A DNA stretch of 64,000 nt from Candidatus Aldehydirespirator sp. (GCA_965220645.1 OZ244836.1:3072335-3136334), one strand, 5' to 3'. Positions 8,956 to 29,297 are shown, counted from the stretch's first letter. Numbers and translations: made by a program. The notes: generated by a model not told the origin, from the letters alone.

Positions 8956-9001
8956 CGTGACCCTTTCGTCACAGAACTGTCTCCCGGCGTGCGACTAAGC
9001 C

Positions 9002-9504: not shown

Positions 9505-9592
9505 AGCGCTGGCGCAGCCCGTCAACTATACGACACCGGTAGATCACAAGCGAAAAGGCCGTCGTCTAGGATGCACGCCCGGAGGTGGAGCA

Positions 9593-10231
9593 ATGAGTCA
9601 CCAGGCTGCGACTGAGAGCGCAGATCGGACCGCTTCGGAGCGTTCGGCCCAGGTGTCCGGCGAGAACCTGAGCGCGGTCGTGAACTCGATCGGACCCAAG
9701 ATCCGCCACCTGCGAAAGCAGTGGAGCCTGTCGCTGCAGCAGCTCGCCGACCGGTCCGACGTGTCGACCGCGGCCATTCACAAGGTGGAGTAGGGCACCA
9801 TGGTGCCGACCATCACGACCCTGCTGAAGCTGGCCGCAGCCCTCGAGCAGCCCGTGGCGTACTTCGTGGACGAGGAGCTTGAGTCACCGTCCTACGTGGT
9901 GTTCACTCCGGCAGCCGAGCGCAGGTCGATCTACACCCCCCATGAAGGCCTCACCTTGGAGGGCATCTCGGGCCCCTACGGGCAGTACTTCGTGGCCACC
10001 GCGATCGCCGAGGTGGAGCCCGGAGGCGACAGCGGCGAATCCCCGCTGCGCCACGCCGGCGAGGAACTGATCCACCTACTGTCGGGACGGCTCGACGTCG
10101 ACGTCTCCGGTCAGACGTTCCAGCTGCGCAGGGGCGACTCGATCCATTTCCGAACCGACCACGAGCATCGCTGGCGCAACCCCGCCAGGAGCCCCGCTCG
10201 TGCCGTGTGGACCGCCCTCAGACCCACCTGA
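9593..10231 (+). pseudogene. XRE-family HTH + cupin transcriptional regulator interrupted by an in-frame TAG (9791-9793)
   Basis: ORFs 9593..9793 and 9800..10231 are in the same frame. The joined sequence LSLQQLADRSDVSTAAIHKVE*GTMVPTITTLLKLAAAL is one continuous XRE helix-turn-helix. The C-terminal half is a cupin (GEELIHLLSGRLDV...GDSIHF). Confidence 0.65.
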
Positions 10232-11661: not shown

Positions 11662-11685
11662 CAGTTCGGCCAATATGATCAACTC

Positions 11686-14277
11686 GTGGAGACCGAGCCA
11701 GGCGGCGCGCCGACGAGCGCACCGGGCGGTTGGTCCCTGGATCCTACGCTTGTTCACCCTCCCTCCGCCGTCGGTGGGAGGAGCGCACCTGCCGGTTGGT
11801 ACCCGGACCCTGCGGACGTGTCAAGGCAGCGACTATGGGACGGCCATCAGTGGACCGACGAAGTAAGCACGGTGGTCAGCGCCTCTGCGGATGCGACGGA
11901 ACCACCCCCTTCTGAGCCGCCGCGTGGCGCTGACTCGGGGCCGCACAGTCCGCCGCTAGCGTCGCTCGGCAGACGACTAACGGCAAGAGTCATCGACTCC
12001 TTATGTCTGCTAGCAGCACTGTACCTGATCGCATCGCTAGCATCGAGATACGCAAGTTACGAACTATCTGACGTATTGAATGGCGAATTAAGCTCGCGGT
12101 TGATCCTGCTCGTGCCACTGTTCTTATGGGAATTCGTTCCACAGGCGTTCACCGGACGCACCTTAGGCAAGGCTCTGCTTGGTATTCGTATCACCAGAGG
12201 TGACGACTCTCCTAGCAACCGATTCCTGGCTGCCTTCGTTCGTTCTGTCGGAATGCTGCTCTTTCTTCTGCCACTCATATTTCTCATAAGCTGCATCACG
12301 GTATTCAGAAAGAAGCGCCGCACGATTCCGGATATGCTCGCCGGAACGTCAGTTGTGAGGGTCGCTACGGCACCGATCTGGCGACTAGTGATAGCCGTGC
12401 TCGTGATCATGATTCTGACCTCATCTGTGGGCTACAGCTATCTTGAGGTGTGGCGACCAGCGGCCAGAATAGGCAATGAGTGGGAGCCCTTGAAATCCTT
12501 TTACGATGCCGATCAAGTTCGAGCCGAAGTTGTCGCCAACATCGACATACTGGACTACGACTTTGTGGTACTCCGCAAGTCTGGAGACACATCCGTATGG
12601 GACATTGCCTACTTCACGGGTGATCCAGAAGACGAGGAAGCTCTCACGGATGAGCTTTGGGAAGACTTCCTCATGGTCGAGTGCTACCGGTATAGGGATG
12701 ACACCTCCGGTTCGCCGGGCGTCGCCTTCGATTGGCCCCAACTAACTCCTTCCGGCGGAACCGATGTGGAACTGTCTTGGCGTGCGAGCACGGGAGCGTC
12801 CGGACAAGCTGTGGGGCTGATGAACTATGAGTCAGAAGATGTGAGTGGTGCCTGGATCGCGACAGCCGGTCTGACGGAGGACGACATTCGGAACAATCTG
12901 CGCGAGAGTGGCCGCTCACCTGATGAACTCGACGGAATACCGGTTGTCTTGCATGACTTCTACGAGGCGTTGCTGGAGGCCGACAGGGTCACGCTCACGG
13001 CCGGGGCCACGAGCAACACCTGGGACCTGCCCGAGGACTCAAGCTCGCTCAGGAGTCTGGTCGAACGATGCGAGGAGGCAAGCGCCCAAGACTCGTCTCC
13101 CGTTGAAGCAACGCCCTCTACGGAAGCAAGCAGCAGCGAGGCGAGCACCGGAGGCTCCTTGCCTGGCGATGTGGATCGCAGTACGACTTCGGCATGCGAA
13201 TTCTCGGACCGGTCAGCCGCTGTAAGAGGCGCTGTCTTCCAAATGTTCGCCGGGGGCGGCATCGGCACGGCTTTCTATGTCGGCAACGACGAGTGGATAA
13301 CCGCGGCCCATGTCGTGGAGAACCAGCGCAGCGTCGTCCTGCGAAACGGCGCCACAGAGCTTTCAGCCACCGTCAAGGGCGGCGATCTGATGGCGGATCT
13401 TGCCCTGTTGGAAGCAAACGGCGACGGGATCGCAGCGCTTCGCTTCGGATCTCTGCGAGAAGTTGGTGCAGGCTTCACTGTTTTCGCGATCGGCTTTCCG
13501 CTGTACGAGGCAGCCGAGTCGTCAGTCACGAGCGGTGTGCTCTCCAGGGTTGAGCAGTACGAGGACTTGGGCGAGGTCATCGTGACGGACGCGTCGGTGA
13601 ATCCCGGCAACAGCGGAGGACCGCTCGTGGACGAGTGCGGCGATGTAGTAGGAATGATCATCGCCAAACATGTGGGAGCTGATGTTGAAGGCATCGGCTA
13701 CGCAGTCCCCGAGACGACGCTACAAGATCAGATCCCGTCTCTTCGCACAGCTGGACCCGATAGCATCGCAAGTGGTCGATCCGACGCCAGCGTCAATCGT
13801 GGAGGTTACACTGACGGCTCAACCGAAGAGGGTTGGATCTTCGGCGAAGATGCAAATGTCGATGGCGGATTTGAGTACTATTCTCTAGAGGCTGAATGGC
13901 ACTCTAGTTACATATCTGGGTACGGCCTTACACTGTTTCTGGTCTGTAGCACGACAGGATCATTGTCAAACGACTATATCTCTGTCTCGACGCCATTCCT
14001 GATCTTCAACGACTACAACTACGACAGTTCAACGGTCCGCTACAGGTTCGAGGACATGACAGCACCCTTCACTGAGCAGTCGTGGTGGAGTTCCGAAGAT
14101 GTCGAATCTTGGCTGTTCGCTCCAGAGGACACTTCATTCGCCGAGCACCTTGGTCGTGCCGGCTCGGGACGCCTGTACATGGAGTTCATTCCCGGCAGCA
14201 CCGTGGGAGATGTGGAGAGCGCCGAATTCATCGTCGATGGCGCGTCGGAGGTCTTGCGAGCGCTCGACTGCTGGTAG
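11686..14277 (+). CDS. multidomain membrane protein: DUF2510-like + RDD + unknown domain + trypsin-like serine protease + unknown C-terminal domain
   Basis: GWYPDPADVSRQRLWDGHQWTDE is the DUF2510 motif (aa 36-58). An RDD-type region with 3-4 TM helices spans aa 93-250. The S1 triad is ITAAHVV (H542), MADLALL (D571) and GNSGGPL (S643). G+C is clearly lower than in the flanks. Confidence 0.88.
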   Translation: METEPGGAPTSAPGGWSLDPTLVHPPSAVGGRSAPAGWYPDPADVSRQRLWDGHQWTDEVSTVVSASADATEPPPSEPPRGADSGPHSPPLASLGRRLTARVIDSLCLLAALYLIASLASRYASYELSDVLNGELSSRLILLVPLFLWEFVPQAFTGRTLGKALLGIRITRGDDSPSNRFLAAFVRSVGMLLFLLPLIFLISCITVFRKKRRTIPDMLAGTSVVRVATAPIWRLVIAVLVIMILTSSVGYSYLEVWRPAARIGNEWEPLKSFYDADQVRAEVVANIDILDYDFVVLRKSGDTSVWDIAYFTGDPEDEEALTDELWEDFLMVECYRYRDDTSGSPGVAFDWPQLTPSGGTDVELSWRASTGASGQAVGLMNYESEDVSGAWIATAGLTEDDIRNNLRESGRSPDELDGIPVVLHDFYEALLEADRVTLTAGATSNTWDLPEDSSSLRSLVERCEEASAQDSSPVEATPSTEASSSEASTGGSLPGDVDRSTTSACEFSDRSAAVRGAVFQMFAGGGIGTAFYVGNDEWITAAHVVENQRSVVLRNGATELSATVKGGDLMADLALLEANGDGIAALRFGSLREVGAGFTVFAIGFPLYEAAESSVTSGVLSRVEQYEDLGEVIVTDASVNPGNSGGPLVDECGDVVGMIIAKHVGADVEGIGYAVPETTLQDQIPSLRTAGPDSIASGRSDASVNRGGYTDGSTEEGWIFGEDANVDGGFEYYSLEAEWHSSYISGYGLTLFLVCSTTGSLSNDYISVSTPFLIFNDYNYDSSTVRYRFEDMTAPFTEQSWWSSEDVESWLFAPEDTSFAEHLGRAGSGRLYMEFIPGSTVGDVESAEFIVDGASEVLRALDCW

Positions 14278-14335
14278 CTCAGCCCTTCGGAGTAAGCGGC
14301 GCGCTTCGACCGAGTTCTTGACGGGCCTGTGACGC

Positions 14336-15736
14336 TCAGGGCAGCCGGCGGTCGAGGTCGAGCAGGGCTTGCTTGAAGCACTCGATGGGTGCCCGGGCGA
14401 CTCCTGCGCCCACCTGGCCCGATCCGTCGGAGACGTGGACGATCCCGGTGTTCACCGCGGGCGTTGTCGAGCTCTCGACGACCCGCCGGACGTCGACCCC
14501 CAGCGGCGTGCCGGCGTCGTCGAGCACGGGCAGGCGCAGCCGGGTGCTGGTGCCGGCACAGATCCGGCTCATAGCCGCGGTGACCGCGGCGGCGTCGGCC
14601 ATCCTGCCGCCGAGGAACCCCGCCACCGCGGGCGAGTTGGCCGCCGCGGCGCCGCCGAGCCCGACCAGCTCCAGCACGGCGCTGTCCCCGATGTCGGGCG
14701 CACTGGTGTCCGGTCCCTGGTCTGGGTGGTACAGGGCATCCTGAACCGGAGGCGACGGGGCGATGTGCCACGTCTCGGAGCAGCCGGCCAGACGGATGCC
14801 GTAGGTGGTGCCGTTGCGGGCCATCGTCGTGACGATGCTGGAGCCGGTCACCTGCCCGGCCCAACCGGTCAGGGCGCGGGCGCCGGCCATGGCAATGTTG
14901 AGGAACATCAAGTGGTTGGTGCTCAGGAAGTCGGCCACCTCCCCGATTCTGTCCGTACCGGCACGGACCAGGTGCGGTAGCAGGTCTCGCAGCAGGAGGT
15001 TGGTCGTGGCCTGGACCCGCATGTGGACGTCATCTCCCATCGTGATGCCCTGAGCGGCCAGAGAGAAGACGTCTATGGGCCCGGACCTGTCCAGGGCCCG
15101 GGCCAGTGCGGGGCCGAGCGCGTCGCGCAGGAACCTGAGGCGATCGATGGCCGCCTCGGAGTCCACCCCGAACCAGGCAACGGCCCCCGCGCCCTGGTTG
15201 AGGCTGGAGTAGGCCGTCGTGCCGCCTTGCTCGACCGACACCACATACACCGGAGCGGACGGCCCGATGGCACTCGCCATGGGCACCACCGTGGAGTGCT
15301 CGTTGGCGGCCTCGAGGCGAACCTCTCCGGCGTCCAGCATTCGGTCGGCAGCTTCGCGGTGCGGGGCCCAGCCCTCGGCCACAACCGCAGCCCTGACCGA
15401 GCGCCGCAGCGGATCGCACATCTCAGCCCAGCCGATGGGCGGGCCGCAGTGCAGGATCGTCGGGGACTCGAAACCATCGATAACTGCTCCGGCAGTCTCG
15501 ACCCCCAGCAGCATCGGCACCCCGCGGTCGAGGCGATCGATCACTTCGGCGTTGGCCGCGTCAATGCGGTCCGAGGCGGGGCCCAGCAGCCTGGCCAGCG
15601 CGGCCACAGCCTCCGCGTCGCCGCCCGCCGGGATACGCCAGTCCACCCCGACCGCGGGCGCGCCCTGGTCCCGTACGGCCGTCTCGAACCGCTCGAGCCC
15701 GATGTTGACAACCGAAACCCGTTCGGGCAGCTCCAC
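14336..15736 (-). CDS. DUF1116 (YlbE-like) family protein
   Basis: 466 aa. The overall pattern (VVNIGLE.F...VDWRPPAGGD, LNQGAG, TTMARNG, GDSAVLE..GLGG) matches the YlbE/DUF1116 family that accompanies FdrA. The start codon is GTG. Confidence 0.8.
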   Translation of the reverse strand: MELPERVSVVNIGLERFETAVRDQGAPAVGVDWRIPAGGDAEAVAALARLLGPASDRIDAANAEVIDRLDRGVPMLLGVETAGAVIDGFESPTILHCGPPIGWAEMCDPLRRSVRAAVVAEGWAPHREAADRMLDAGEVRLEAANEHSTVVPMASAIGPSAPVYVVSVEQGGTTAYSSLNQGAGAVAWFGVDSEAAIDRLRFLRDALGPALARALDRSGPIDVFSLAAQGITMGDDVHMRVQATTNLLLRDLLPHLVRAGTDRIGEVADFLSTNHLMFLNIAMAGARALTGWAGQVTGSSIVTTMARNGTTYGIRLAGCSETWHIAPSPPVQDALYHPDQGPDTSAPDIGDSAVLELVGLGGAAAANSPAVAGFLGGRMADAAAVTAAMSRICAGTSTRLRLPVLDDAGTPLGVDVRRVVESSTTPAVNTGIVHVSDGSGQVGAGVARAPIECFKQALLDLDRRLP

Positions 15737-15745
15737 AACGACCCT

Positions 15746-16300
15746 CTAGGACATTGTGACGAGCAGAGCGCTAGGCGTGTCGCGGGCGGCGGGCAAGCGC
15801 AGGCAGGCGTCGTCAGGAATCTCGCTCTCGGCCAGGCTGCCGGCTTCAGAGAGTTCGAATGTCATGGGCTGGTGAGGCAGGCCGAAGTAAGGAAGGGGCG
15901 GACCGTTGTGCTTCCAGCCGAGCCGCTCGAAGAAGTTGACGTTCTGGAGTTGGACAAAGGCGTCCATCACGTCACCGCCCGCTGCGGCCGCCGTCGAGAC
16001 CGCGAACCGAACCAGCCGCATGCCCACGATTCCGGCTCGGTGACCGGGCAGTACTGCTAGCCGATCGCCCTTCCATCGGCCGGCCGTGTCGGTGCGGTAC
16101 AGCCGAACTGTGCCGACGGCCACCGATCCCCGCCCCGCAAGAACGTGGACTGTCTCAGGGTCGCGATCCCAGTCGTCGACATCGGTGAACGGAATGACCC
16201 GCTGTTCCTCCACGAAGATGCGGTGACGGATGCGCATATGCCAGCTCAGGGCAGGCGAAGTCAAGGCCCGCCAGCACACGATCCGATCCGATGGGCTCAA
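15746..16300 (-). CDS. GNAT family N-acetyltransferase (MSMEG_0567/sll0786-like)
   Basis: MRIRHRIFVEEQRVIP...VLAGRGSVAVGTVRL...GDRLAVLPGHRAGIVGMRLVRFAV...NVNFFERLGW is a GNAT fold. The start is uncertain: TTG 16300 is chosen because it lies just after the radical SAM stop, and GTG 16279 and ATG 16237 are alternatives. Confidence 0.75.
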   Translation of the reverse strand: MSPSDRIVCWRALTSPALSWHMRIRHRIFVEEQRVIPFTDVDDWDRDPETVHVLAGRGSVAVGTVRLYRTDTAGRWKGDRLAVLPGHRAGIVGMRLVRFAVSTAAAAGGDVMDAFVQLQNVNFFERLGWKHNGPPLPYFGLPHQPMTFELSEAGSLAESEIPDDACLRLPAARDTPSALLVTMS

Positions 16301-16343
16301 CTGCGATCCGCCTGAGGCGTCGGGGTGTTCACGACCACTGCGA

Positions 16344-17462
16344 TCAGCCCGTCGCTCGCACCGGTATGAGGCTGCGGTTCCCGTTGGATTGCAGCTCCCT
16401 CTCCATCGCACCGACCGGCGAGCAGGCCTGGCAACGGGCACAGCCGGCGGCGACCTTGTCCGCGGTCAGCCCCCGCTCCACCAGGTAGGGCGCGACCTTC
16501 CGGGCGACCCGCTCGACGTAGTCGGAGGTGGGGGGCATCCAATCGCCCATGAGCGAGCCCGGAACCGGTCGCAGTGGCACGATGAACGGGTACACGCCAA
16601 TATCGGCCGCCCGACGGCAGCCGTCGACCATCAGATCAGGATCCTCTCCCATGCCCAGGATCACATAGGTGGAGACCTGGCCCTCACCGAAGCGCTCCAC
16701 CGCATACTCCCAAGTCTCGAAGTAGCGCTCGATGCCGGTGCGGTACTTGGGGGGCGCAACCCACTCGAGCACGGCCGGGTCGAAGGTCTCCACGTGGATC
16801 CCCACTGAGTCGATACCCCGGTCAGCCACTTGGTCGATCACGCTCAGGTCGTCGGGCGGCTCGAACTGCACCTCGACCGGCAAGCCGGAGGACTCCTTCA
16901 TGGCCTCCCCGCACTTGGCCACGTACAAAGCGCCCTTATCGCGGCCGTAGGTGGAACCGGTCGTCAAGGTGATGTCCACCGCGCCATCCAGTTCCTTGGC
17001 CGCCACCGCCACCTCGGCCAGCTGCGCGGGCCGCTTGACCAGCACTGTGCTGCCCGAGGCAAGGGACACCCCGATCCCGCAGAAGCGGCACTGGTCCTGG
17101 TTGCCCCAGTAGGCGCAGGTCTGCAGCACGGTGCTGGCCAGCGAGTCGAGGTGCATGAGGGCTAGCTGCCAGTACGGGACGCCGTCGGCGGTGGTGAGGC
17201 CATAGAAGCGGGGCCGGTCGGCCGGAGCGGCCCCAGCCAGGCGGATCCCGTCGGCGTAGATCCCGAAGCCCTCGTCCTCGGGCTCCAGAGAGTAGGGGGA
17301 GTCGGCCACGAAGGAGGCGTCCACGGGCACGGTGACCGCGGTGCCCTCGATCCAGACCATCCCCGCGTCCGAGGGGCCAGCGCCACCCGGTCGGCGCTCG
17401 AAGGGGGCGTTTATCCGTAGGCCCTTGAACTGGAGATCGATGATGAGCTCTGCCAGCGACAC
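16344..17462 (-). CDS. radical SAM protein (MSMEG_0568-like)
   Basis: A Cys cluster lies in LQTCAYWGNQDQCRFCG, there is a TIM-barrel-like core, and the C-terminus has CARCQAC. The position next to the GNAT gene matches the Nit1C-type cluster. Confidence 0.75.
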   Translation of the reverse strand: MSLAELIIDLQFKGLRINAPFERRPGGAGPSDAGMVWIEGTAVTVPVDASFVADSPYSLEPEDEGFGIYADGIRLAGAAPADRPRFYGLTTADGVPYWQLALMHLDSLASTVLQTCAYWGNQDQCRFCGIGVSLASGSTVLVKRPAQLAEVAVAAKELDGAVDITLTTGSTYGRDKGALYVAKCGEAMKESSGLPVEVQFEPPDDLSVIDQVADRGIDSVGIHVETFDPAVLEWVAPPKYRTGIERYFETWEYAVERFGEGQVSTYVILGMGEDPDLMVDGCRRAADIGVYPFIVPLRPVPGSLMGDWMPPTSDYVERVARKVAPYLVERGLTADKVAAGCARCQACSPVGAMERELQSNGNRSLIPVRATG

Positions 17463-17534
17463 TACCCAATTCCTACCACCGGACAGCCGGCTCCGCCGTG
17501 TCCGCCGCGGTAGGGATTCGTGATGGCTCCCCTG

Positions 17535-18062
17535 TTAGGGAATGCTGTTCCCCGTGGCGAGGACTATGGCCGGGACCCAGAAGGTGTAGATCGCGGTTAC
17601 GGCCAGGATCCCGCCCAAGGGCTTCGCTTGCATCTTGCCGTAGGTGGTGGCCGTCACTGACAGGAAGGCGACCAGCCAGACGATCAGGATCGACCTGAGC
17701 ATCCACTCCCCGGGCAGGGCATCCCACCAGAAGAGAGGAAGGATGGCCGTCGGGACGCCCAGGTTGCCAACCACGCGCAAGTCCCATCCGTTCATCTCGG
17801 CCTTGCCGAGCACCACGAAGAACAGGCCGTAGAACACGATCAGTCCAGCCAGGACGACGGAAGCGTCATCCAGAGGCCGAGCCCACATGATGTAGACGGC
17901 TTGCACCAGGTTGAGCACACCGACGAGGAAGGACGCGTGGCCGATGCCGACAAGCGGATTCGTTCCACCCTCCTTCTGGTCGGCGCCCACTCCGAGGAAG
18001 TAGAGCGCATTGAGCCACACGACTAAGCCAGTGGCTATGAAGACGACGGTGATAGGAGGCAT
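17535..18062 (-). CDS. AmiS/UreI family amide/urea channel
   Basis: About 175 aa with six predicted TM helices, a typical AmiS/UreI size and pattern. The ATG at 18062 is preferred over the ORF-track start at 18107, which would read through the upstream palindrome. Confidence 0.75.
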   Translation of the reverse strand: MPPITVVFIATGLVVWLNALYFLGVGADQKEGGTNPLVGIGHASFLVGVLNLVQAVYIMWARPLDDASVVLAGLIVFYGLFFVVLGKAEMNGWDLRVVGNLGVPTAILPLFWWDALPGEWMLRSILIVWLVAFLSVTATTYGKMQAKPLGGILAVTAIYTFWVPAIVLATGNSIP

Positions 18063-18084
18063 AACAAGCCTTTCATCGGTCTCG

Positions 18085-18155
18085 ATCCGACATTTCGGAT
18101 GAGACATACTTATCTCGCAACCTAAACCCTGAGCATGGGCAGGTCAAACCCGCCC
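18085..18155 (-). promoter_or_regulatory. regulatory module B: palindrome plus CCTAAACCC / GTCAAACCCGCCC repeats, upstream of amiS
   Basis: The palindrome ATCCGACATTTCGGAT lies at 18085-18100, CCTAAACCC at 18121-18129 and GGTCAAACCCGCCC at 18142-18155. It aligns with 9002-9070 at about 33 of 46 positions over the first block, by hand count. Confidence 0.55.
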
Positions 18156-18168
18156 GGGGCGCGCTCGG

Positions 18169-18690
18169 CTATTTATCCCCGAGACTGCCGAGATGGTGGA
18201 CGCTGTGGTCGTGCGCGCGGTGGTCGTGGTCGCTGTGGTCGTGCGCGCGGTGGTCGTGGTCGCCGTGGTCGTGATGGGTGTGATCGTGGTCGTGCGCGCC
18301 GTGGTCGTGGTCGCCGTGGTCGTGATGGGTGTGATCGTGGTCGTGGTCGCCGTGGTCGTGGTCGCCGTGGTCGTGACCGGGCGGGCGGGCGGCGAACGTG
18401 GCGGCCAGCTCGTCTACCTCGGGCTCAGCGACTATCGCAAGCTCCGAGACGATCGACTCGAGCGCCTCCTGCCAGCGCTCGTAGTAGCGGTACTCGCCGG
18501 AGGGCTCCGCCTCCCAGCGCTGCACGGCGGCGATGAGGTGGTCGCGGAACTCGTCCCAGGTGAACAGGCCCTTCTCCACTAGGGCCATGGCCATCGCGAA
18601 GCTCCGGCCCTCCCAGGGCGCGCCGAACACCAGCTCGCCGTTGAGCCGGGGCGGGGCGGCCGGGCCTTCGATGTCGAGCGTCAGGGCCAC
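18169..18690 (-). CDS. nitrile hydratase accessory (activator) protein with a His/Asp-rich C-terminal tail
   Basis: LVFGAPWEGRSFAMAMALVEKGLFTWDEFRDHLIAAV is the NHase accessory-protein signature. The tail (aa 106-166) contains 28 His among 61 residues by hand count. Confidence 0.85.
   Translation of the reverse strand: MALTLDIEGPAAPPRLNGELVFGAPWEGRSFAMAMALVEKGLFTWDEFRDHLIAAVQRWEAEPSGEYRYYERWQEALESIVSELAIVAEPEVDELAATFAARPPGHDHGDHDHGDHDHDHTHHDHGDHDHGAHDHDHTHHDHGDHDHRAHDHSDHDHRAHDHSVHHLGSLGDK
18193..18375 (-). repeat. coding His/Asp codon repeat (GTGGTCGTG-type units)
   Basis: Tandem degenerate units encode HDHGDHDH... Confidence 0.9.
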
Positions 18691-18700
18691 CGGTGCCTGC

Positions 18701-19300
18701 TCAGCCTCCGCTGACTGTGGCCACTCCCACCATGGCGTCGCGGGTCACCAGCGCGGCCAAATCCTCCTCGGAGAGATCCCCGGTGCCGGTGGGACGCTGG
18801 GGCAGGACCAGGTAGCGGTTCTCGGCGCTGGAGTCCCAGACCCGCACGTCCACGCCGTCATCAAGGTCGAGTCCCATCTCCCGCAGCAGGGTGCGGGGCT
18901 CGCGCACCATGCGGCTGCGGTAGGCCGGGTCCTTGTACCACTCGGGCGGCAGGCCCAGAACCGGCCACGGGTAACACGAGCACAGGGTGCAGACCACGAC
19001 GTTGTGCACATCGTTGGAGTTCTCGACTACGACGATGTGCTCGCCCTGGGGGCCGGCGAATCCCAGTTCCTTGACGGCGCCGGTGCCGTCGGCGAGCAGG
19101 CGCTGGCGGTACTCGCCATCGACCCAGGCCTTGGCCACGACCTTGGCACCGTTCATGGGGCCGACATCGTTGACGAAGCGGTTGATGAAGCCGTCGAGCA
19201 CCTCGGACTTGACCAGGCCGCGCTCGGTCAGCAGTGACTCCAGCGCCTCGGCCCGAACCGGCGGCGGTGGCCGGTCCTTGGTGTGGGAGTGGTCAGCCAT
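18701..19300 (-). CDS. nthA: nitrile hydratase alpha subunit, cobalt type
   Basis: The metal-binding motif is [11 protein letters not shown]. Thr and Tyr at these positions are characteristic of Co-type enzymes (Fe-type has CSLCSCT). Confidence 0.93.
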
Positions 19301-19960
19301 CTAGGTCGCCTCCAGGTAGCTCTCGAACAGATCGATCCGAAGCTTGGCCGCCTCCGCGCCGGGGCCCCACAGCTCGGTCGAGTCGTACTCCACCGTGTAC
19401 ACGTGCTGAGGGTTCTCGCCCGTAAAATGGGCGTTGGTGTCGGGCAGCAGCGCCGACGGCCGCAGGGCGTGCACCGTGCCGGTTCGGCCGCGCACATACC
19501 CCGGCAGGCGGGTGTGACCGTCGGTGTGAATGTCCTTGGCCCGCACCCGGTCGCCAACTGAGAAGGCGGGGGGGTCATCGATCTCGCGCAGCGACCCGGC
19601 GCCGCCCCGCTCGTAGACGGGCTTGTTCTCTTCCACACCGGCCGGCTCGTCGACCGACTCCCCCGTCAGGTTTCGGGCCCGGGCCTCTACCGCGCCGGGA
19701 GGGATCACCCCGCTGTCAACGAGCAGCGTCTCGGCGCACGCCAGCCAGCGCCCGTAGTAGCCGTCGGCCAGGTAGTCGTAGGGGTGCAGGCGCTCGAGGC
19801 CGTGGCGGAAGGCGTCGAGGTTGGTCCCCGACAGGCCCATCGACATGGCCCCCATGGCGAAGGCCCTGCCGTGCCAGGGCTCGCGGAACACCGGCTCGTC
19901 GGGGTCGATGGCCACGGTGCCCCAGCCCTGCATTCCCCCCATGTCGTGTATGCCGTCCAT
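19301..19960 (-). CDS. nthB: nitrile hydratase beta subunit
   Basis: The N-terminus is MDGIHDMGGMQG, followed by EPWHGRAFAM. The stop directly abuts the alpha-subunit start. The beta-alpha-accessory order is as in Co-type operons. Confidence 0.92.
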   Translation of the reverse strand: MDGIHDMGGMQGWGTVAIDPDEPVFREPWHGRAFAMGAMSMGLSGTNLDAFRHGLERLHPYDYLADGYYGRWLACAETLLVDSGVIPPGAVEARARNLTGESVDEPAGVEENKPVYERGGAGSLREIDDPPAFSVGDRVRAKDIHTDGHTRLPGYVRGRTGTVHALRPSALLPDTNAHFTGENPQHVYTVEYDSTELWGPGAEAAKLRIDLFESYLEAT

Positions 19961-19980
19961 CGGAGCCTCCCCGTCGGTCG

Positions 19981-20014
19981 ATTCTTCAGCCGGTGGCCCG
20001 GTGTGTCAACTATA
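19981..20014 (-). promoter_or_regulatory. putative promoter of the nitrile hydratase genes
   Basis: On the minus strand TTGACA (20009..20004) is followed after 17 nt by AAGAAT (19986..19981). TATAGT (20014..20009) is an alternative -10. GGGGAGG precedes the ATG at 19960. Confidence 0.4.
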
Positions 20015-20083
20015 AGACAGTGACAGGTCGCAAGAGAAACGCAGAACTGCCTGGCCCTGACGCACGGAACTGGATCGGAAGAC

Positions 20084-21673
20084 TCAAGAGGCGCCGGCCA
20101 GCTCGCGGGCTCGGGTCAGCAGCCTCTCCTCGGCGCGGGAGTAGCGCTCCTGCGCCTCGATCGCCCCCGCCCGCAGATGGGCAGCCCGGGCGGTGAATTC
20201 CTCGGCCATCGATCTCACCTCGCCCGGGGACGCTCCGCCCGTCGCCCTCCGGGTGGCCACGATCCGGCGCAGGTCCAGGGCGTCGGCCAGCGCGGCCGCG
20301 TCGAGTCCGAGCCGCCGCCCGCACACCTCGGAGGCCGCTTCGTCGAGCATCTCGGAGGTGATGTCCAGGCCGGTGAGTCCCCGGCGGCTGGCTGCCCGCA
20401 CGGCCCGTCCCACCACGTGGTACGCGGTGCGATAGTCGACGCCGGCGGCCACCATCACGTACTCGGCCAGATCGGTGGCCTGGGTGAAGCCGCGTGCGAG
20501 TTCGGACCACATCCGCTCGGCGTTCACCGTCAGGGTTCTAACCACCCCAGCCGTCAGGGCGCTGACCCGGATCGTGAAGTCCAGCGCCCGGGGAATCTCG
20601 CCGTAGGCGAAGATCAGGTTGTCGCTACGAGCCGACGGACTCTTGACCACGGCCAGGAACCCGCTCATGCGGCCGATCAGCACGCCGCTCGCTCCCCGGA
20701 TGATGGAGAGCGCGTAGGGGTTGCGCTTCTGGGGCATCAGCACCGAGGCCCGAGTGAACGGCCCGGCCAGGTCGACGTAGTCGAACTCCTGGCTCGACCA
20801 GATCTCAAGGTCCTCGGCCAGCTTGGCCTGGTTGGCGATCATGCTCGCCGAGGTGGCCAGCAGGTCGATGAACACGTCGGTCTGCCACATGGCGTCACGG
20901 GTGTGGGCGATGACGCCGTCGAATCCCAGCTCGCCCGCGATGGCGGCCCGGTCGTCGAGCAGCCGGCTGCCGTTAACGCAGCCCGCGCCCGCGGGGCTGG
21001 TGTTCACCTGCTCAAGGGCAGCCAAGAACCGCTCGCCGTCGCGCAGGGCGGGCGGGACGAAGGCGAGCAGGTAGTGACCGAAGGTGGAGGGCTGGGCCTG
21101 CTGAAGGTAGGTCTGGTCTCCCATGAACGTCTCAGCGTGTTCGGCAGCCACCGCGGCCGCGGCCGACGCGAAATCGGCTCCGACCTCTATGAGGCGGGCC
21201 GTCTGCGAGCGCAACAGCAGCCGCAGCGCCACCCGGGCGGCCTCCCGGCGGGGACGGCCGGCGTGGAGCCATCCGGCCGAATCGCCGATCCGTTCAACGA
21301 AGTGGCGCTCCCGCGAGTTGTAGACCTCGCCGAAGGCGGAGTCGTAGGGGAAATCGGCCGGGTCGGTGCCGTAGGCGTCCAGCAGCACCTTCAGCAGGTC
21401 GGCCGCCGCCGCCTGGGGTACCAGACCCCGGCTGCGCAGGTCCAGTACATGGCCGAGGTCAGCGAGATTCAGGCCGTGGTGCAATAGCGGGGCGTCGGCG
21501 ATCTCCCACGCGAAGCCGGCGTCGACCAGTTCCTGGGCCGGTGCCTCCGACGACGGCCCAGCCACTCGTGGACCCCGTCCGGCCTCTCGCCGGTTCTGCG
21601 TCATCGGTCCGAACGCATGGGAGAAGGCGGTCTCATTGCCATCGCACCGAGCGAGCGTAGTGCTGGCTCTCAC
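20084..21673 (-). CDS. argininosuccinate lyase family protein (fumarate-lyase superfamily)
   Basis: The signature SVLMPQKRNPYA is present, and the QAQPSTFGHYL region is ArgH-like. A GTG at 21673 overlaps the upstream stop (GTGA). An ATG at 21604 is an alternative start. Confidence 0.85.
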   Translation of the reverse strand: MRASTTLARCDGNETAFSHAFGPMTQNRREAGRGPRVAGPSSEAPAQELVDAGFAWEIADAPLLHHGLNLADLGHVLDLRSRGLVPQAAAADLLKVLLDAYGTDPADFPYDSAFGEVYNSRERHFVERIGDSAGWLHAGRPRREAARVALRLLLRSQTARLIEVGADFASAAAAVAAEHAETFMGDQTYLQQAQPSTFGHYLLAFVPPALRDGERFLAALEQVNTSPAGAGCVNGSRLLDDRAAIAGELGFDGVIAHTRDAMWQTDVFIDLLATSASMIANQAKLAEDLEIWSSQEFDYVDLAGPFTRASVLMPQKRNPYALSIIRGASGVLIGRMSGFLAVVKSPSARSDNLIFAYGEIPRALDFTIRVSALTAGVVRTLTVNAERMWSELARGFTQATDLAEYVMVAAGVDYRTAYHVVGRAVRAASRRGLTGLDITSEMLDEAASEVCGRRLGLDAAALADALDLRRIVATRRATGGASPGEVRSMAEEFTARAAHLRAGAIEAQERYSRAEERLLTRARELAGAS

Positions 21674-22575
21674 ACCCCACGATGATCGCCAGCCTGGGAG
21701 GAATGCCAGCGCAGGACCCGCTTCTCGACCGCGATCAGCAGCAGGACGAAGGCGACGCCGATGAAGGCCAGGACGAAGACGCTGCCCCAGAGTTGATCGA
21801 CAAGCAGTCGGGACTGGGCCACCCGGGCCGCGTTGCCCAGCCCCTCCCTGGAGTTGAAGAACTCGCCGATGACCGCTCCGACCAACGCCAAGCCGACGCA
21901 GATCCGGCCCGCGGCGAACAGGTACGGCAGCGAGTGCGGGATTCGCAGCCGCCAGTAGATCTCCCAGCGGCTGGCATTCACCGAGCGCAGCAGCTCATGG
22001 GTCTCCTCGTCGATTGAACGGAGCCCGATCAGCGCGTTGGCAACGAATGGAACCCAGGCGAACAGCATGGCAGTCAGGATCTTTGGCCAGGCCGTGAACC
22101 CGAACCACAGCAAGAAGATCGGCACCAGCACCGCCACTGGCGTCGACTGCATGAGCACGATCACCGGCATGGTCGCTCGCTCGACGAACTGAGAGTGCGC
22201 CATCCCCGTGGCGACGAGAAGGGCGGCTACAAAGGCGATGACGAACCCCCAGAAAGCCTCCTGCACGGTAACAAGGCCGTTTCGCCAGTAGAAGTCCGGA
22301 TTCTCGACCACATGTCGGATCACGTCGGAGGGAAGCGGCAGCGTGAGGGGCCGCAGGTTGCGGACCTGGACGTATATCTCCCATCCCACGAAGAAGGCGG
22401 TCAGGCCGGCGAAGGGCGCAATCAGCAGGGCCGCCCGGCGCACAGGCCGGCGGGGCACCTCGGGCGGATCCTCAGCGAACAGCCCATCAGCGACGTCCGG
22501 GGCGTCGGGAGGGCCGGAGCCTCCATCCGGCGCCGGCCGAGGCGGCTCGCCCGAAGAAGTGTCGCGACCACCCAT
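21670..22575 (-). CDS. ABC transporter permease (NitT/TauT family)
   Basis: This is an SsuC/TauC-like permease (STPVAVLVPIFLLWFG..., EAA-loop-like LRSVNASRWEIYWRLRIP). The ATG at 22575 overlaps the ATPase stop (TGATG). The ORF-track TTG at 22587 is an alternative. Confidence 0.85.
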   Translation of the reverse strand: MGGRDTSSGEPPRPAPDGGSGPPDAPDVADGLFAEDPPEVPRRPVRRAALLIAPFAGLTAFFVGWEIYVQVRNLRPLTLPLPSDVIRHVVENPDFYWRNGLVTVQEAFWGFVIAFVAALLVATGMAHSQFVERATMPVIVLMQSTPVAVLVPIFLLWFGFTAWPKILTAMLFAWVPFVANALIGLRSIDEETHELLRSVNASRWEIYWRLRIPHSLPYLFAAGRICVGLALVGAVIGEFFNSREGLGNAARVAQSRLLVDQLWGSVFVLAFIGVAFVLLLIAVEKRVLRWHSSQAGDHRGV

Positions 22576-23366
22576 CAGTTCGACCAACCGTGTAGCAACG
22601 CGGCCCGGACCTCGGCCAGGATGTGGTGGTAGTCGTCACTGTCCTCCACGTCGGCGCGGCGCGGTCTGGGCAGCGGGACATCGATGATCTTGGTGACGCG
22701 TCCCGGCCTGGCCCCTAGAACAGCCACCCGGTCCGACAGCACCACCGCCTCGGGAATCGAATGCGTCACGAACAGCACGGTGCTGCCGATGCGCTCCCAC
22801 AGATCGAGCAGCAGATACCGCATGTCGGCCCGGGTTATCTCATCGAGGGCCGAGAACGGCTCGTCCATCAACAGCACGGGCGCGCCGAGAGCGAAGGCCC
22901 GTGCGATGCTGACCCGTTGCTGCAGGCCTCCGCTCAACTCCCGAGGCAGCGAGTCCAGGAAGGGCGTCAGGCCGATGTCGTCAAGCATCTGGAGCTGGTC
23001 GTCGGCGGACATGCCGGGATTGTCCGGCCGGCGGTTCACGTCTCCGAGCAGCGACACGTTCCTGCGCACCGTCCGCCACGGCAGCAGGGCCGGGTGCTGG
23101 GGCACGAAGCCGTAGCGCTTCTGCCGGCGGGCATCCTCCGGCAACTGGCCGTTGACAACCACCGTGCCGCGGTCAGGCGCCAGGAGTCCCCCGGCCAGGC
23201 GCAGCATGGTGGACTTGCCGCAGCCGGACGGTCCGATCAGGCTGACGAACTCCGACTGACGCACATCCAGGCTTACCCTCGACAGAGCATGCACGAGCCG
23301 GTCCTTGAGTCTGAACCACTTCGAGACCGACTCGAAGCTGACGGCCGGTGCGGTCACCACATGCAC
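22575..23366 (-). CDS. ABC transporter ATP-binding protein (NitT/TauT family)
   Basis: Walker A GPSGCGKST, signature LSGGLQQRV and Walker B VLLMDEPFSALD are present. Confidence 0.92.
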   Translation of the reverse strand: MHVVTAPAVSFESVSKWFRLKDRLVHALSRVSLDVRQSEFVSLIGPSGCGKSTMLRLAGGLLAPDRGTVVVNGQLPEDARRQKRYGFVPQHPALLPWRTVRRNVSLLGDVNRRPDNPGMSADDQLQMLDDIGLTPFLDSLPRELSGGLQQRVSIARAFALGAPVLLMDEPFSALDEITRADMRYLLLDLWERIGSTVLFVTHSIPEAVVLSDRVAVLGARPGRVTKIIDVPLPRPRRADVEDSDDYHHILAEVRAALLHGWSN

Positions 23367-24088
23367 ATCCCGCCGGTGACGTTGATTGCCTGACCCGTCA
23401 TGTAGCTCCCACTTTCAGAGGCCAAGAAGGCAACGGCGGAGGCTACATCGGCGGGATCGCCGAGCCGACCGAGCGGGCTCTTGGCCGTCCACGCCGCGAT
23501 CTGGTCGGCGGTGCGGGTGTCAGCACCCATCTCGGTGAGGACATAGCCGGGACAGACCGCGTTGACCGTCACGCCGTGGGGACCGAGTTCCATGGCCGCG
23601 ATCCGGCTGAGGGCCACCACCGCTGCCTTCGACGCCGCGTAGGCCGCTTCCCCCGGCGTACCCAACTTGGCCGCCATCGATGCCACGTTCACGATCCGAC
23701 CTCCGGCGCCGGCCGCGATCATGGCCGGCGCCAGCGCCTGGATCACAACCACCATGGAGCGAACGTTCACCCGGTGGACGCGATCCCACTCCTCGAGCGC
23801 CATCTCCAGCAGCGGTGTCTTCGAGAACACGCCCGCGTTGTTCACCACCAGCCAGTAGGGCCCGTCCCCAACATCTGCTGCCAGCGCTTGCCGGGTCGCC
23901 GCGGCGTCGGCCAGGTCGACGACGACACTGGTAGCTCCGAGGCCGCGGGCGACATCCTCGACGGCGGGGTCGACGTCGAGCAGGACGGCGTGCATGCCTT
24001 CTTCGGTCAGCCGCTCCGCGATCCGGCGGCCGATCCCTCTCGCCGCGCCGGTCACGAGACAGCGGCGGCCCCGGAGTCCGTCAGCCAT
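23354..24088 (-). CDS. SDR family oxidoreductase (FabG-like)
   Basis: TGAARGIG, NNAG and YAASKAAV motifs are present. Confidence 0.9.
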   Translation of the reverse strand: MADGLRGRRCLVTGAARGIGRRIAERLTEEGMHAVLLDVDPAVEDVARGLGATSVVVDLADAAATRQALAADVGDGPYWLVVNNAGVFSKTPLLEMALEEWDRVHRVNVRSMVVVIQALAPAMIAAGAGGRIVNVASMAAKLGTPGEAAYAASKAAVVALSRIAAMELGPHGVTVNAVCPGYVLTEMGADTRTADQIAAWTAKSPLGRLGDPADVASAVAFLASESGSYMTGQAINVTGGMCMW

Positions 24089-24111
24089 GTGGGGGTCGGG
24101 GCTCTCGACGG

Positions 24112-24759
24112 CTACGCGACTGGATCGGCACCCAGGATCTGGGCCCGAAAGCCGGGGTCGCTGAGCAGATCTTTGACAGTGTGGACGATCGCCTGGGTGT
24201 GGGCGTCGATCTCGATGTTGACCGAGTCGCCCACGCTCACCAAGCCGAGCGTCGTCCGCTCGAGCGTCTCGGGGATCAGGCTCACCGCGATCCGGTGGCT
24301 CTCGCGATCGACTCCCGAGATGGTCAGGCTGGCACCGTCAATGGCGACCCACCCCTTCCATAGCAGGTAGGGCATGAGCGACTCATCGACGTCGAACCAC
24401 ATCGTGCGGTTGTCGCCTTCCGCGGCTATCTCGCACACGGTGGCCGTCCCCGACACATGGCCGGACAGCACATGCCCTCCGAGTTCATCGCCGAAGCGCA
24501 GCGAACGCTCGATGTTGACGGGGTCGCCGACCGACAGAGCACCAAGGTTCGTGCACTGCATCGTCTCCGCGATCACATCGAACCGCGCCTTCGAGCCGTC
24601 GATGTCAGACACGGTCAGGCACGTCCCGTTGTTGGCCACGCTTGCGCCGGTCTGAAGTACGTCAGCGTGGGGGCCGAGGTCGACGGTGAGACGGCAGATG
24701 CCTTCTGCCGCCTCGATGCCGACGACCCGGCCCATCCCCTGGACGATTCCCGTGAACAT
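24112..24759 (-). CDS. ribE: riboflavin synthase (alpha chain) homologue
   Basis: The N-terminus is MFTGIVQGMG. The two-lumazine-binding-repeat layout is present (GASVANNGTCLTV / GWVAIDGASLTI). Confidence 0.88.
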   Translation of the reverse strand: MFTGIVQGMGRVVGIEAAEGICRLTVDLGPHADVLQTGASVANNGTCLTVSDIDGSKARFDVIAETMQCTNLGALSVGDPVNIERSLRFGDELGGHVLSGHVSGTATVCEIAAEGDNRTMWFDVDESLMPYLLWKGWVAIDGASLTISGVDRESHRIAVSLIPETLERTTLGLVSVGDSVNIEIDAHTQAIVHTVKDLLSDPGFRAQILGADPVA

Positions 24760-24818
24760 GCCGTGCGTTCCCGCCTGCTTGTGCGGCTATGTCGATCGAT
24801 GCTCCGGCCGGCTGAGGG

Positions 24819-26114
24819 TCAGGGCCCCGGCCAGATCAGTTCCGCTCCGTCGTAGACGCTCTCGGCGAAGCCCGGATCCACCATGGACTGCCAGTCGGGA
24901 GTCGACTCCCACACGCCGGCCTGCACCAAGGCGTCGATCTCAGATCCGAAGAGGTCGAGATCGGGGATTCCCACACCGGCGCCAGCCGGGGCGAGATCGG
25001 CGATCAGGGCGGACTCCACGCCCCAGCGGTAGCGCTCCGCCTCCATGGCGAAGTACAGCGGGTTGCCGGCCGCGTCGATCAGATCGAAGGCGTTCTCCAC
25101 GGCGATGTCCGGGTTCGCGGCCGCGAAGGCTTGGCCCCGGATCAGGGCCCGCACCACGTCGGCCACCAGGCCGGGGTTGTCGTCGATCATCGACTGCGTC
25201 GTGAACGTGACGCCGAAGCTGGAGGGCACGCCGAAGTCGAGCGGATCGAGCATCGTGAAGGCCACGCCGTTGTTGGTCAGAGTGTTGGGCTCGTTGGACT
25301 TGTACACCGGCAGGGCGTCGATGCCCAGATCTAGGTGCGCCACCGGGTCGAATCCGTCCAGCAGGATCTCCTCGAAGCAGCTCCGCTCGATTCCCGACAA
25401 TGCGACGGAAGCCTGCAGCGAGTACGGCAGGTCGCCCTTGATTCCTATGAGGCTGCCGCACAGCCCGGAGAAGTCCTCGATGTCGCTTCCCTCTGGCAGC
25501 ACGATGGCCTCTATCGCGGTGCGACCCCAGTGGATCAGGGCCACGAGATCGCCCTCGCCGGCGACGTTGTTGGCCACCATCTCGGCGAACGATCCGGATG
25601 CTCCGAACTGGGCCTGCCCCTCGATGACCAGCGCCCCGTTGGACGGAGCGAAGCCGGGCTGGATCTCGAAGTCGATGCAGAGTTCCTCGAAGTAACCCTG
25701 GGCATCAGCCACGATCGCATCGATGATCCCGGCCGCGGCCGCGAAATCGAACCCGGTAACGAAGGTCATCTTGCCGGCGTCGCGGTTGGCCTGGCAGCGC
25801 TCCGCAGCCGCGTCCGGCTCAGGCTCAGCGGCCGGCTCAGGCTCAGCAGCCGGCTCGGGCTCGGGCTCAGCAGCCGGCTCAGGCTCAGCAGCCGGCTCAG
25901 GGTCAACAGCCGGCTCGGGCTCAGGCTCTGCAGCCGGTTCGGGCTCGGCTGCCGCCTCAGGGTCAACAGCCGGCTCAGGGTCAACAGCCGGCGCCGGTTC
26001 AGGCGCGGCCGCATCTTCGGCGTCGTCGCCGCTGCACGCAGCCGCCACCAGCGCCAGCACGAGCACGGCCAGCAATATCAGCCGTAGCCGTCTGAATGAA
26101 TCGTGGTGCCTCAT
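24819..26114 (-). CDS. ABC transporter substrate-binding lipoprotein (NMT1/SsuA-like) with a (PEPA)n linker
   Basis: The ATG at 26114 is preceded by GGGAGGG. The lipobox is LVAAACSG. An acidic Pro/Glu/Ala repeat precedes an SsuA/NMT1-like domain. The 171 aa upstream in the ORF track are spurious. Confidence 0.85.
   Translation of the reverse strand: MRHHDSFRRLRLILLAVLVLALVAAACSGDDAEDAAAPEPAPAVDPEPAVDPEAAAEPEPAAEPEPEPAVDPEPAAEPEPAAEPEPEPAAEPEPAAEPEPDAAAERCQANRDAGKMTFVTGFDFAAAAGIIDAIVADAQGYFEELCIDFEIQPGFAPSNGALVIEGQAQFGASGSFAEMVANNVAGEGDLVALIHWGRTAIEAIVLPEGSDIEDFSGLCGSLIGIKGDLPYSLQASVALSGIERSCFEEILLDGFDPVAHLDLGIDALPVYKSNEPNTLTNNGVAFTMLDPLDFGVPSSFGVTFTTQSMIDDNPGLVADVVRALIRGQAFAAANPDIAVENAFDLIDAAGNPLYFAMEAERYRWGVESALIADLAPAGAGVGIPDLDLFGSEIDALVQAGVWESTPDWQSMVDPGFAESVYDGAELIWPGP
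25815..26006 (-). repeat. coding tandem repeat encoding (A)EPEP(A) units
   Basis: GGCTCAGGCTCAGC(A/G)GCCGGCTC-type units. Residues 37-100 of the lipoprotein are PEPAAEPEPEPA... Confidence 0.9.
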
Positions 26115-26242
26115 CTCGCCCTCCCTCGAAGCGAAGACCATCGCCGGACCATCTCGTTGCATCCGGCTCCAAGCGCAGTCTGCCAGCGCCCAGCGACCGA
26201 TGCCAAGGCTGCGCCCAGTCGGGGCCACCGAGGGCCACCGGC

Positions 26243-29276: not shown

Positions 29277-29297
29277 CTGTGTGATCTGGGTGCGGCG

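Follow-up and report, generated by a model that had tools for sequence, protein, structure and literature searches.

The question raised by the locus described here is what a nitrile hydratase (NHase) does among genes whose relatives are grouped with a nitrilase. The locus lies in a stretch of 64,000 nucleotides (nt) from Candidatus Aldehydirespirator sp. (GCA_965220645.1 OZ244836.1:3072335-3136334; GC content about 0.70), referred to below as the window. The genes of a cobalt-type (Co-type) NHase and of an AmiS/UreI-like membrane protein occupy positions 17535-19960 of the window and are placed directly upstream of a radical S-adenosylmethionine (SAM) gene. It was found that the NHase is recurrently associated with one actinobacterial supercluster and that this association survives rearrangement of the genes. 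The reading favoured here, and favoured tentatively, is that a Co-type NHase is a fixed accessory and the nitrile step of this Nit1C-like supercluster, and that the whole forms one regulon.

The nitrile hydratase and its surroundings in related genomes

The order beta subunit, alpha subunit, accessory protein and AmiS/UreI-like protein, as given in a preliminary description of the window, was reproduced on the minus strand, with each profile match above its cut-off:

19301-19960, minus strand: NHase beta subunit, 219 amino acids (aa); TIGR03888 208.5 bits (cut-off 152.2), Pfam NHase_beta_N and NHase_beta_C
18701-19300, minus strand: NHase alpha subunit, Co-type, 199 aa; TIGR01323 295.7 bits (cut-off 249.85)
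18169-18690, minus strand: NHase accessory (activator) protein, related to the beta subunit, with a His/Asp-rich C-terminal tail; TIGR03889 71.3 bits (cut-off 46), Pfam NHase_beta_N
17535-18062, minus strand: AmiS/UreI-fold membrane protein with six helices, 175 aa; Pfam AmiS_UreI 27.9 bits (cut-off 25)
19981-20034, minus strand: promoter/operator region upstream of the beta gene; CTTGCGACCTGTCACTGTCTTATAGT, then TTGACA, 17 nt, AAGAAT

The start codon (ATG) of the alpha gene immediately follows the stop codon of the beta gene. The alpha subunit contains the metal-binding motif C-(T/S)-L-C-S-C in its Co-type version, V-C-T-L-C-S-C-Y, and aligns without gaps with the Co-type enzymes 4OB1 and 1V29. 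The solved structures nearest to the enzyme are all Co-type (1V29, 2DPP, 3QXE and 1IRE, matched by the alpha subunit at E values of 1e-71 to 1e-80), and the thiocyanate hydrolase model remained below its cut-off (192 vs 291 bits). Co-type NHases have a separate beta subunit with conserved arginines contacting the oxidised cysteines. Such a subunit is present here, its best match in the PDB being the Co-type NHase 3QXE_B; the arginine motifs FRHxxER and TRxPxYxRG seen in the 3QXE_B alignment occur as FRHGLERL and HTRLPGYVRGRTG. The 3' end of the accessory gene is a tandem repeat of 51 nt (18235-18376, 2.8 copies, 96% matches) that encodes the His/Asp-rich tail (HDHGDHDH...), possibly a cobalt-binding one, and the length of the protein varies from 156 to 173 aa among sibling strains. 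As judged from these sequence features, the beta and alpha subunits with their metallochaperone-like accessory protein probably form an ordinary and active cobalt-type enzyme.

The context of the NHase is one supercluster of roughly 30 kb belonging to Actinomycetota, which extends from about 6.8 to 36.6 kb in the window. It combines families of the Nit1C cluster, FdrA/AllG/AllH with carbamate kinase, the coenzyme-M-like ComA and XcbA, XcbC and XcbD genes, and a module of OsmC and a coenzyme A (CoA)-disulfide-reductase-like protein. For comparison, a genome collection was scanned with the radical SAM protein, and all cluster proteins were mapped onto the 80 closest loci (loci are cited below by their L numbers). 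The best matches, with 86-97% identity, came from sponge-associated Acidimicrobiales labelled Candidatus Aldehydirespirator; Aldehydirespiratoraceae/UBA11606 is a sponge-symbiont family with a free-living sister lineage (PMC11706023). Across the 80 loci the supercluster was conserved in Acidimicrobiia, Nocardioides, Kribbella, Micromonosporaceae, Euzebyaceae and others. Its typical order has glycosyltransferase, FdrA and carbamate kinase genes pointing one way and, in the other direction, a conserved gene called u241 here, then radical SAM, GNAT, the AIR-synthase-like gene (reversed), ComA, XcbA, XcbD, XcbE, XcbC, AllG and AllH, with a module of an XRE-cupin regulator, reductase and OsmC nearby.

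The NHase was present in at least 36 of the 80 loci. The beta, alpha and accessory genes stood between the XcbC-like and radical SAM genes in all 28 loci of the sponge-symbiont clade, followed the XcbC-like gene in L031 and L034, adjoined the reductase and OsmC genes in L060, L066 and L073, and lay just beyond the fetched range on three more contigs (L029, L037, L040). The reverse check, which started from the NHase beta subunit and in which five homologues (72-84% identity) were inspected, gave the same supercluster around all five, each with the run beta, alpha, accessory, OsmC. Downstream of OsmC, in L088, L089, L091 and L092, were found the reductase, an open reading frame (ORF) of 86 aa and one of 162 aa that is homologous to the Sll0783-family protein of the window, with the XRE-cupin regulator divergent; in L090 OsmC was followed instead by AllG-AllH and by a membrane protein with a DUF1097 domain, and no XRE-cupin gene was present at that position. 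The placement of the NHase immediately before the radical SAM gene, specific to the sponge-symbiont clade, is a derived feature.

The site TTGACA-17-AAGAAT at 20009-19981, within the gap of 123 nt before the beta gene, was the sole sigma-70-like site in 14000-33200, and a TTGACA-N16/17-nAnAAT site has kept its position upstream of the beta gene in the distant loci L088-L092. Just upstream of the promoter, a block of 26 nt, unique in the window (expectation 0), was conserved clade-wide, also in strains with an insertion of foreign DNA ahead of it. The NHase is thus probably transcribed from its own conserved promoter, which is a prediction, and the unit probably runs on through the AmiS-like, radical SAM, GNAT and AllG genes. 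The preliminary description had the last three co-directional and immediately downstream, and this was borne out: all lie on the minus strand with intergenic gaps of 72 nt (AmiS-like/radical SAM), 106 nt (radical SAM/GNAT) and 9 nt (GNAT/AllG). A simple scan of the minus strand from the beta gene to AllG gave no terminator-like site.

A second sequence element, TCnTATAGT, has exactly three copies in the window (0.07 expected), each marking the 5' end of a minus-strand unit of the cluster:

31883-31891, minus strand: copy upstream of u241 (TCTTATAGT)
20009-20017, minus strand: copy upstream of NHase beta
9525-9533, minus strand: copy upstream of OsmC (TCGTATAGT)

In the 80 loci, 86 of the 90 copies lay at most 250 nt upstream of NHase beta, OsmC, u241, radical SAM or AllG genes. 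Since the three unit promoters share this element, the OsmC-reductase, NHase and long Xcb units look like one regulon, for which this constitutes good circumstantial evidence. The XRE-cupin protein is a candidate regulator on the position of its gene alone.

The AmiS-like protein has a different relation to the NHase. Its match to AmiS_UreI (PF02293) is marginal, yet spans profile positions 4-165 of 166; a precomputed Pfam assignment was found on about half of its homologues, and its start was set at 18062 (MPPITV...) from 110 homologues and gene calls. An AlphaFold model, built with 33 of the 110 homologues, showed six helices with a mean predicted local distance difference test (pLDDT) value of 90.8. 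Its two best PDB matches were Helicobacter pylori UreI (6NSJ and 3UX4; template modelling score 0.77-0.78, 17-18% identity), followed by related SatP channels. Neither an amidase nor a urease was found in the window or beside the homologues examined. The gene is missing from seven NHase-bearing loci of the same clade (L004, L011, L020, L021, L024, L025, L027), and it directly follows the radical SAM-GNAT pair in a minimal freshwater actinobacterial cluster that carries no NHase (L086/L087). For these two reasons the AmiS-like protein counts as an optional part of the supercluster and not as the import or export partner of the NHase. In L088 its gene lies between OsmC and the reductase, in Nocardioides aquiterrae (L084) about 3 kb from the CbtAB, glycosyltransferase, FdrA and carbamate kinase genes, and one homologue from Dormibacteraeota has an unrelated gene context. 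Of the earlier statement that an AmiS/UreI-type amide channel follows the NHase, the position and the UreI fold stand and a specific tie to the NHase does not. The modelled fold is consistent with a channel through which a small uncharged solute, similar to an amide or to urea, would pass in the service of the whole system.

These observations bear on the simplest alternative, that NHase and AmiS-like protein are a self-contained cassette for nitrile detoxification or scavenging, for example of nitriles of the sponge host, which landed beside the cluster by chance. The origin of the genome from a sponge-symbiont lineage (Aldehydirespiratoraceae/UBA11606, PMC11706023), the separate promoter of the NHase, and the mobile or defence DNA that has entered, in one strain or another, on either side of the unit are all in keeping with it. 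It is opposed by the linkage of the same NHase orthogroup to the supercluster in several arrangements, including those in metagenome genomes from sources other than sponges (L060, L066, L073, L089-L092), by the rare promoter element common to the NHase and two other cluster units, and by the looseness of the tie between AmiS-like protein and NHase. A chance cassette is consequently regarded as unlikely, although of the alternatives considered it keeps the most weight.

The supercluster and its relation to known systems

The other features of the supercluster in the window are the following, in order of position:

6822-9535, minus strand: OsmC-reductase operon, with OsmC at 9091-9486, a CoA-disulfide-reductase-like flavoprotein at 7633-8955, the 86-aa ORF at 7354-7614 and the MSMEG_0572/Sll0783-family protein at 6822-7310
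9593-10231, plus strand: regulator with XRE-HTH and cupin domains, interrupted by an in-frame TAG at 9791-9793
14336-15736, minus strand: AllG/DUF1116-like protein; Pfam AllG 225 bits
15746-16237, minus strand: MSMEG_0567/Sll0786-family GNAT protein, 163 aa as called in sibling contigs; TIGR04045 88.1 bits (cut-off 68.45)
16344-17462, minus strand: MSMEG_0568-family radical SAM protein; TIGR04043 364.2 bits (cut-off 303.7)
20084-21604, minus strand: argininosuccinate-lyase-fold protein, XcbC-like, called as 506 aa; NF052535 433 bits (below the cut-off of 575), Pfam Lyase_1 and ASL_C2
21670-26000, minus strand: variable insert with NitT/TauT-type ABC permease, ATPase, SDR, riboflavin-synthase-like and NMT1-type binding proteins
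26243-27598, minus strand: adenylosuccinate-lyase-fold protein, XcbD-like; NF052536 505 bits (below the cut-off of 600)
27583-28626, minus strand: XcbA-family/DUF7714 protein; NF052538 306.8 bits (cut-off 150), Pfam DUF7714 277 bits
28488-29276, minus strand: phosphosulfolactate synthase, ComA/XcbB-like; Pfam ComA 248.7 bits, TIGR03849 246.7 bits (below the cut-off of 280)
29298-30164, minus strand: AllH/DUF2877-like protein; Pfam AllH 74.4 bits
30098-31102, plus strand: sll0787-like AIR-synthase-like protein; best model TIGR04049, 243.5 bits (below the cut-off of 321.3)
31155-31880, minus strand: conserved protein u241, first gene of the long minus-strand unit; no family match
31974-32951, plus strand: carbamate kinase; Pfam AA_kinase, 57% identity to the homologue in L071
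33048-34601, plus strand: FdrA/AllF-like protein; NF004760 405 bits (below the cut-off of 433), Pfam Ligase_CoA and CoA_binding
34493-35770, plus strand: MSMEG_0565-family glycosyltransferase; TIGR04047 370.5 bits (cut-off 259.85)
35805-36581, minus strand: CbtA, probable cobalt transporter subunit; Pfam CbtA 174.6 bits

The Sll0783-family protein (162 aa; TIGR04044 201.4 bits, cut-off 109.85) lies about 9 kb from the radical SAM gene, and the flavoprotein of the same operon scored 259.8 bits on TIGR03385, below the cut-off of 578.8. The 86-aa ORF is conserved in the OsmC-reductase unit and matched no family. The AIR-synthase-like gene is antisense to its neighbours in all relatives; the minus-strand ORF at 30161-31168, which was considered as a novel protein, matched no family and was rejected as a shadow of this gene. 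In L086 the gene that precedes radical SAM encodes a homologue of u241. The homologue of the carbamate kinase in L055 reached 323.7 bits on TIGR00746, and the variable insert with ABC and SDR genes was found only in some members of the clade (L009, L010, L015, L021, L022).

The TAG in the regulator gene sits where the otherwise identical alleles of sibling strains (L081, L082, L088) have CAG (Gln67); either the likely regulator of the cluster is present here as a null allele, or the TAG is an error of sequencing. An ORF cluster downstream of AllG (c7) was rejected as a gene, being an antisense shadow of this regulator in which stop codons occur in the window. A stretch of lower GC content (10537-14277, plus strand; GC 0.57 for 12-14 kb) has been inserted between the AllG and regulator genes and codes for an AAA_16/HTH protein and for a DUF2510-RDD-trypsin-like protein of 863 aa; the siblings L082 and L083 have instead AbiEi/AbiEii and a 1549-aa protein between the XcbC-like and NHase beta genes. 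The CbtA gene adjoins the glycosyltransferase gene also in L029-L040 and in L084, the latter with CbtB in addition (10694-11656), and does so even in variants that have no NHase in range. No riboswitch or other Rfam RNA, such as a cobalamin riboswitch near CbtA, was found at the gathering threshold, and an exact-sequence look-up of one distal protein of the window gave no match.

Several variants of the cluster have surroundings of their own. In Nocardioides aquiterrae (L084) and Kribbella sp. (L094), the arm of glycosyltransferase, FdrA and carbamate kinase is directly flanked by Calvin-cycle genes, namely those of fructose bisphosphatase, phosphoribulokinase and aldolase in both and also of RuBisCO in L084. 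A radical SAM protein 77% identical to that of the window is encoded in an FdrA-type cluster on AKAU01000078.1 (L093), from an assembly labelled Paraburkholderia hospita; this cluster in a betaproteobacterial assembly reflects either horizontal transfer or a contaminant contig.

The closest known system is the Nit1C cluster (Podar et al. 2005, PMC1199592), represented by sll0783-0787 of Synechocystis, whose counterpart in Mycobacterium smegmatis is MSMEG_0565-0572 ('gpr') (PMC6039565). The order of Nit1C genes is hypothetical protein, nitrilase, radical SAM, acetyltransferase, AIR synthase, hypothetical protein and flavoprotein, sometimes with a glycosyltransferase (PMC1199592); the order used here rests on that paper and on the definitions of the NCBIfam models. 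The Sll0783-family YchN/DsrE-like protein (about 160 aa), the radical SAM and GNAT proteins and the glycosyltransferase are common to Nit1C and the window, the AIR-synthase-like protein, which scores below its cut-off here, is a probable further one, and in both a nitrile-hydrolysing enzyme is encoded immediately upstream of the radical SAM gene, the nitrilase in Nit1C and the NHase in the window. The differences are equally clear: the window lacks the subfamily-1 nitrilase and has in its place a two-subunit Co-type NHase, which yields an amide, not acid and ammonia; its genes are divided among several units that lie on both strands; and it adds FdrA/AllG/AllH and carbamate kinase, the Xcb-like genes, OsmC and the CoA-disulfide-reductase-like protein. 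For the MSMEG_0570 and MSMEG_0569-type (flavoprotein) families no cluster ORF gave an NCBIfam match, the flavoprotein that is present being unrelated. The induction of MSMEG_0565-0572 by nitrogen starvation exceeds 500-fold, and the genes are necessary and sufficient for GlnR-dependent peroxide resistance (PMC6039565), which fits the OsmC and reductase partners of the cluster in the window.

The proposal of the preliminary description that the NHase holds the slot of the Nit1C nitrilase therefore stands in part. The radical SAM, GNAT, glycosyltransferase and Sll0783-family proteins pass the cut-offs of their Nit1C models, no nitrilase is present and the NHase does precede the radical SAM gene; the adjacency, however, is derived and the replacement is not one for one. 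The claim needs correction because distant relatives carry the NHase in a separate operon of beta, alpha, accessory, OsmC, reductase, 86-aa ORF and Sll0783-family genes. A nitrilase-bearing Nit1C locus was not met through distant radical SAM homologues: the 120 best matches listed were all at least 68% identical, and the two distant contexts inspected (the Paraburkholderia hospita-labelled L093 and Kribbella) both proved to be FdrA-type clusters.

Classical NHase operons, known from Rhodococcus, Pseudomonas and Bacillus, include an amidase gene. They share with the window the Co-type beta, alpha and activator genes and differ from it in that amidase, since none was found in the 64 kb, and in their other neighbours, those in the window not being genes of nitrile or amide catabolism. 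An AmiS/UreI-family protein is also encoded nearby in amiEBCRS of Pseudomonas aeruginosa, as in the window, where it is tied to the radical SAM/FdrA cluster rather than to the NHase. All four homologues of allFGH-allK of Escherichia coli, which encode an oxamic transcarbamylase and a catabolic carbamate kinase (PMC11326118, PMC9843812), occur in the window and are conserved together; here, however, FdrA scored 405 vs a cut-off of 433, the genes are spread over three units and an allantoin context is lacking, Pfam scans of the window ORFs having given no allantoinase, allantoate amidohydrolase or ureidoglycolate dehydrogenase.

The ComA/XcbB-, XcbA-, XcbC- and XcbD-like genes have the same relative order in the window as in the coenzyme M pathway XcbA-E of Xanthobacter autotrophicus (PMC9457059). 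The XcbA family passes its curated cut-off, whereas ComA and the XcbC- and XcbD-like proteins do not, and XcbE, a pyridoxal-phosphate enzyme, is encoded neither anywhere in the window nor in any member of the sponge-symbiont clade. The product of these genes is therefore probably not coenzyme M itself. XcbE is present in many relatives (L032, L035, L038, L044-L079, L091, L092); the idea that NHase and XcbE are mutually exclusive alternatives was rejected, as L091, L092 and L060 carry both. A description of this combination of genes, or of an NHase in sponge Acidimicrobiia, was not found in the literature.

The proposed nitrile step and the fate of the amide

According to the favoured reading, a Nit1C-like system would have taken up the NHase to convert its nitrile; there the enzyme would do the job of the nitrilase and stop at the carboxamide, and it would be co-regulated with the redox, sulfonate and carbamoyl modules of that system. 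That two unrelated nitrile-hydrolysing families occur on related cores is so far the best hint of a nitrile as a real substrate of these systems. The building of an NHase into the cluster suggests, and does not prove, that the family works on a nitrile.

The absence of an amidase from the window, noted in the preliminary description, was confirmed. Nearly every sizeable ORF of the 64 kb was scanned against Pfam and NCBIfam, and neither an amidase nor a nitrilase was detected; a six-frame motif scan of the window agreed, giving no amidase-signature or nitrilase-type protein. No nitrilase (CN_hydrolase) or amidase-signature protein was found in the 80 related radical SAM loci either. In L070 (region of about 0.2-4.6 kb) an Amidohydro_2 gene lies between reductase and OsmC, where L060 and L073 carry the NHase genes. 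As a guess, the nitrogen of the amide could be released through the branch of carbamoyl transfer and carbamate kinase, or the amide could leave the cell, rather than be hydrolysed by an amidase.

Several points weigh against this interpretation. The chemistry of the cluster neither makes nor needs a nitrile in any obvious way, and the scans of the window gave no amidase to complete the release of nitrogen. In many relatives no NHase and no nitrilase lies within 10 kb, examples being L044-L053, L093, L094 and L062-L077 (except L066 and L073, which have the NHase); the core system can therefore do without a nitrile step, and the nitrilase has not simply been exchanged for the NHase one for one. 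An AbiE/defence insertion of 6.5 kb is tolerated in sibling strains between the XcbC-like and NHase beta genes, and thus the NHase is not co-transcribed with the Xcb unit. The element TCnTATAGT could in part be a lineage-typical promoter element of the extended -10-like or UP-like kind, not an operator. Finally, all the relatives are metagenome-assembled genomes or unstudied isolates, and those that bear the NHase are without exception metagenome-assembled.

It is tempting to carry the favoured reading further and to speculate that Nit1C-type systems process a specific nitrile, endogenous or scavenged, which here would be handled together with a coenzyme-M-like sulfonate or thiol, with FdrA/AllGH and carbamate kinase generating or consuming carbamoyl phosphate, and with a thiol-peroxidase and reductase. 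Such an undescribed pathway, responding to nitrogen starvation and oxidative stress, with release of nitrile nitrogen without an amidase, seems quite unlikely in this complete form.

In another model the cluster would make a cyano compound. Carbamoyl phosphate supplied by carbamate kinase would be converted to a carboxamide by FdrA/AllGH transfer, the PurM-superfamily AIR-synthase-like protein would dehydrate the carboxamide at the expense of ATP, by analogy with HypF/HypE, and the NHase, or the nitrilase of Nit1C, would recycle or neutralise the product. Every variant of the cluster does contain a carbamate kinase, a complex of the carbamoyl-transferase type and a PurM-superfamily protein, and nitrile-hydrolysing enzymes of two unrelated families occur on related clusters (the NHase in the window, the nitrilase in PMC1199592). 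The model rests purely on analogy, however, and is very improbable: the listed matches of the AIR-synthase-like protein (sll0787, methanogenesis marker 2, ThiL/PurL/SelD) include no HypE model, making and hydrating a nitrile within one regulon looks futile, and many variants lack any nitrile-hydrolysing enzyme.

The least probable alternative, and one that can be largely set aside, is the oxamate link of the preliminary description, which would have cyanoformate, or a nitrile like it, hydrated by the NHase and the resulting amide (oxamate or another) passed to the FdrA/AllG/AllH carbamoyltransferase and carbamate kinase. All four homologues (FdrA, AllG, AllH, carbamate kinase) are in the window, and the putative transcription unit of the NHase ends with AllG; these four are found, however, in essentially every cluster variant, with or without the NHase, and Pfam scans of the window gave no genes of an allantoin or oxalurate pathway. 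Cyanoformate is chemically unstable, and in pairs of transcarbamylase and carbamate kinase the kinase points to the catabolic direction, with the amide released and not consumed, both of which count against the link. AllFGH of E. coli has been shown to be an oxamic transcarbamylase and was assayed from oxamate and carbamoyl phosphate to oxalurate, so that an enzyme of this type can carbamoylate an amide in vitro; in the organism, oxamate is a dead-end product of AllFGH and not its physiological substrate, with a Michaelis constant of 36.9 mM (PMC11326118). Oxamate is thus not supported as the metabolite joining the NHase to the FdrA module.

The NHase itself is ordinary, and what appears to be new is its presence in a Nit1C-like core fused with the AllFGH/carbamate kinase, Xcb-like and OsmC/reductase modules. 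For annotation, this corrects a tempting but wrong reading of NHase and amide channel as a self-contained cassette that feeds an oxamate enzyme. Nit1C and MSMEG_0565-0572 have been known since 2005; nitrogen starvation or cyanide induces them strongly. In one large actinobacterial branch the position of the nitrilase appears to be held by a different nitrile-converting enzyme. The locus provides concrete candidates for substrate and partners and a candidate promoter element shared among the units, and cultivable hosts are available in Nocardioides and Kribbella for the variant of the cluster that lacks the NHase.

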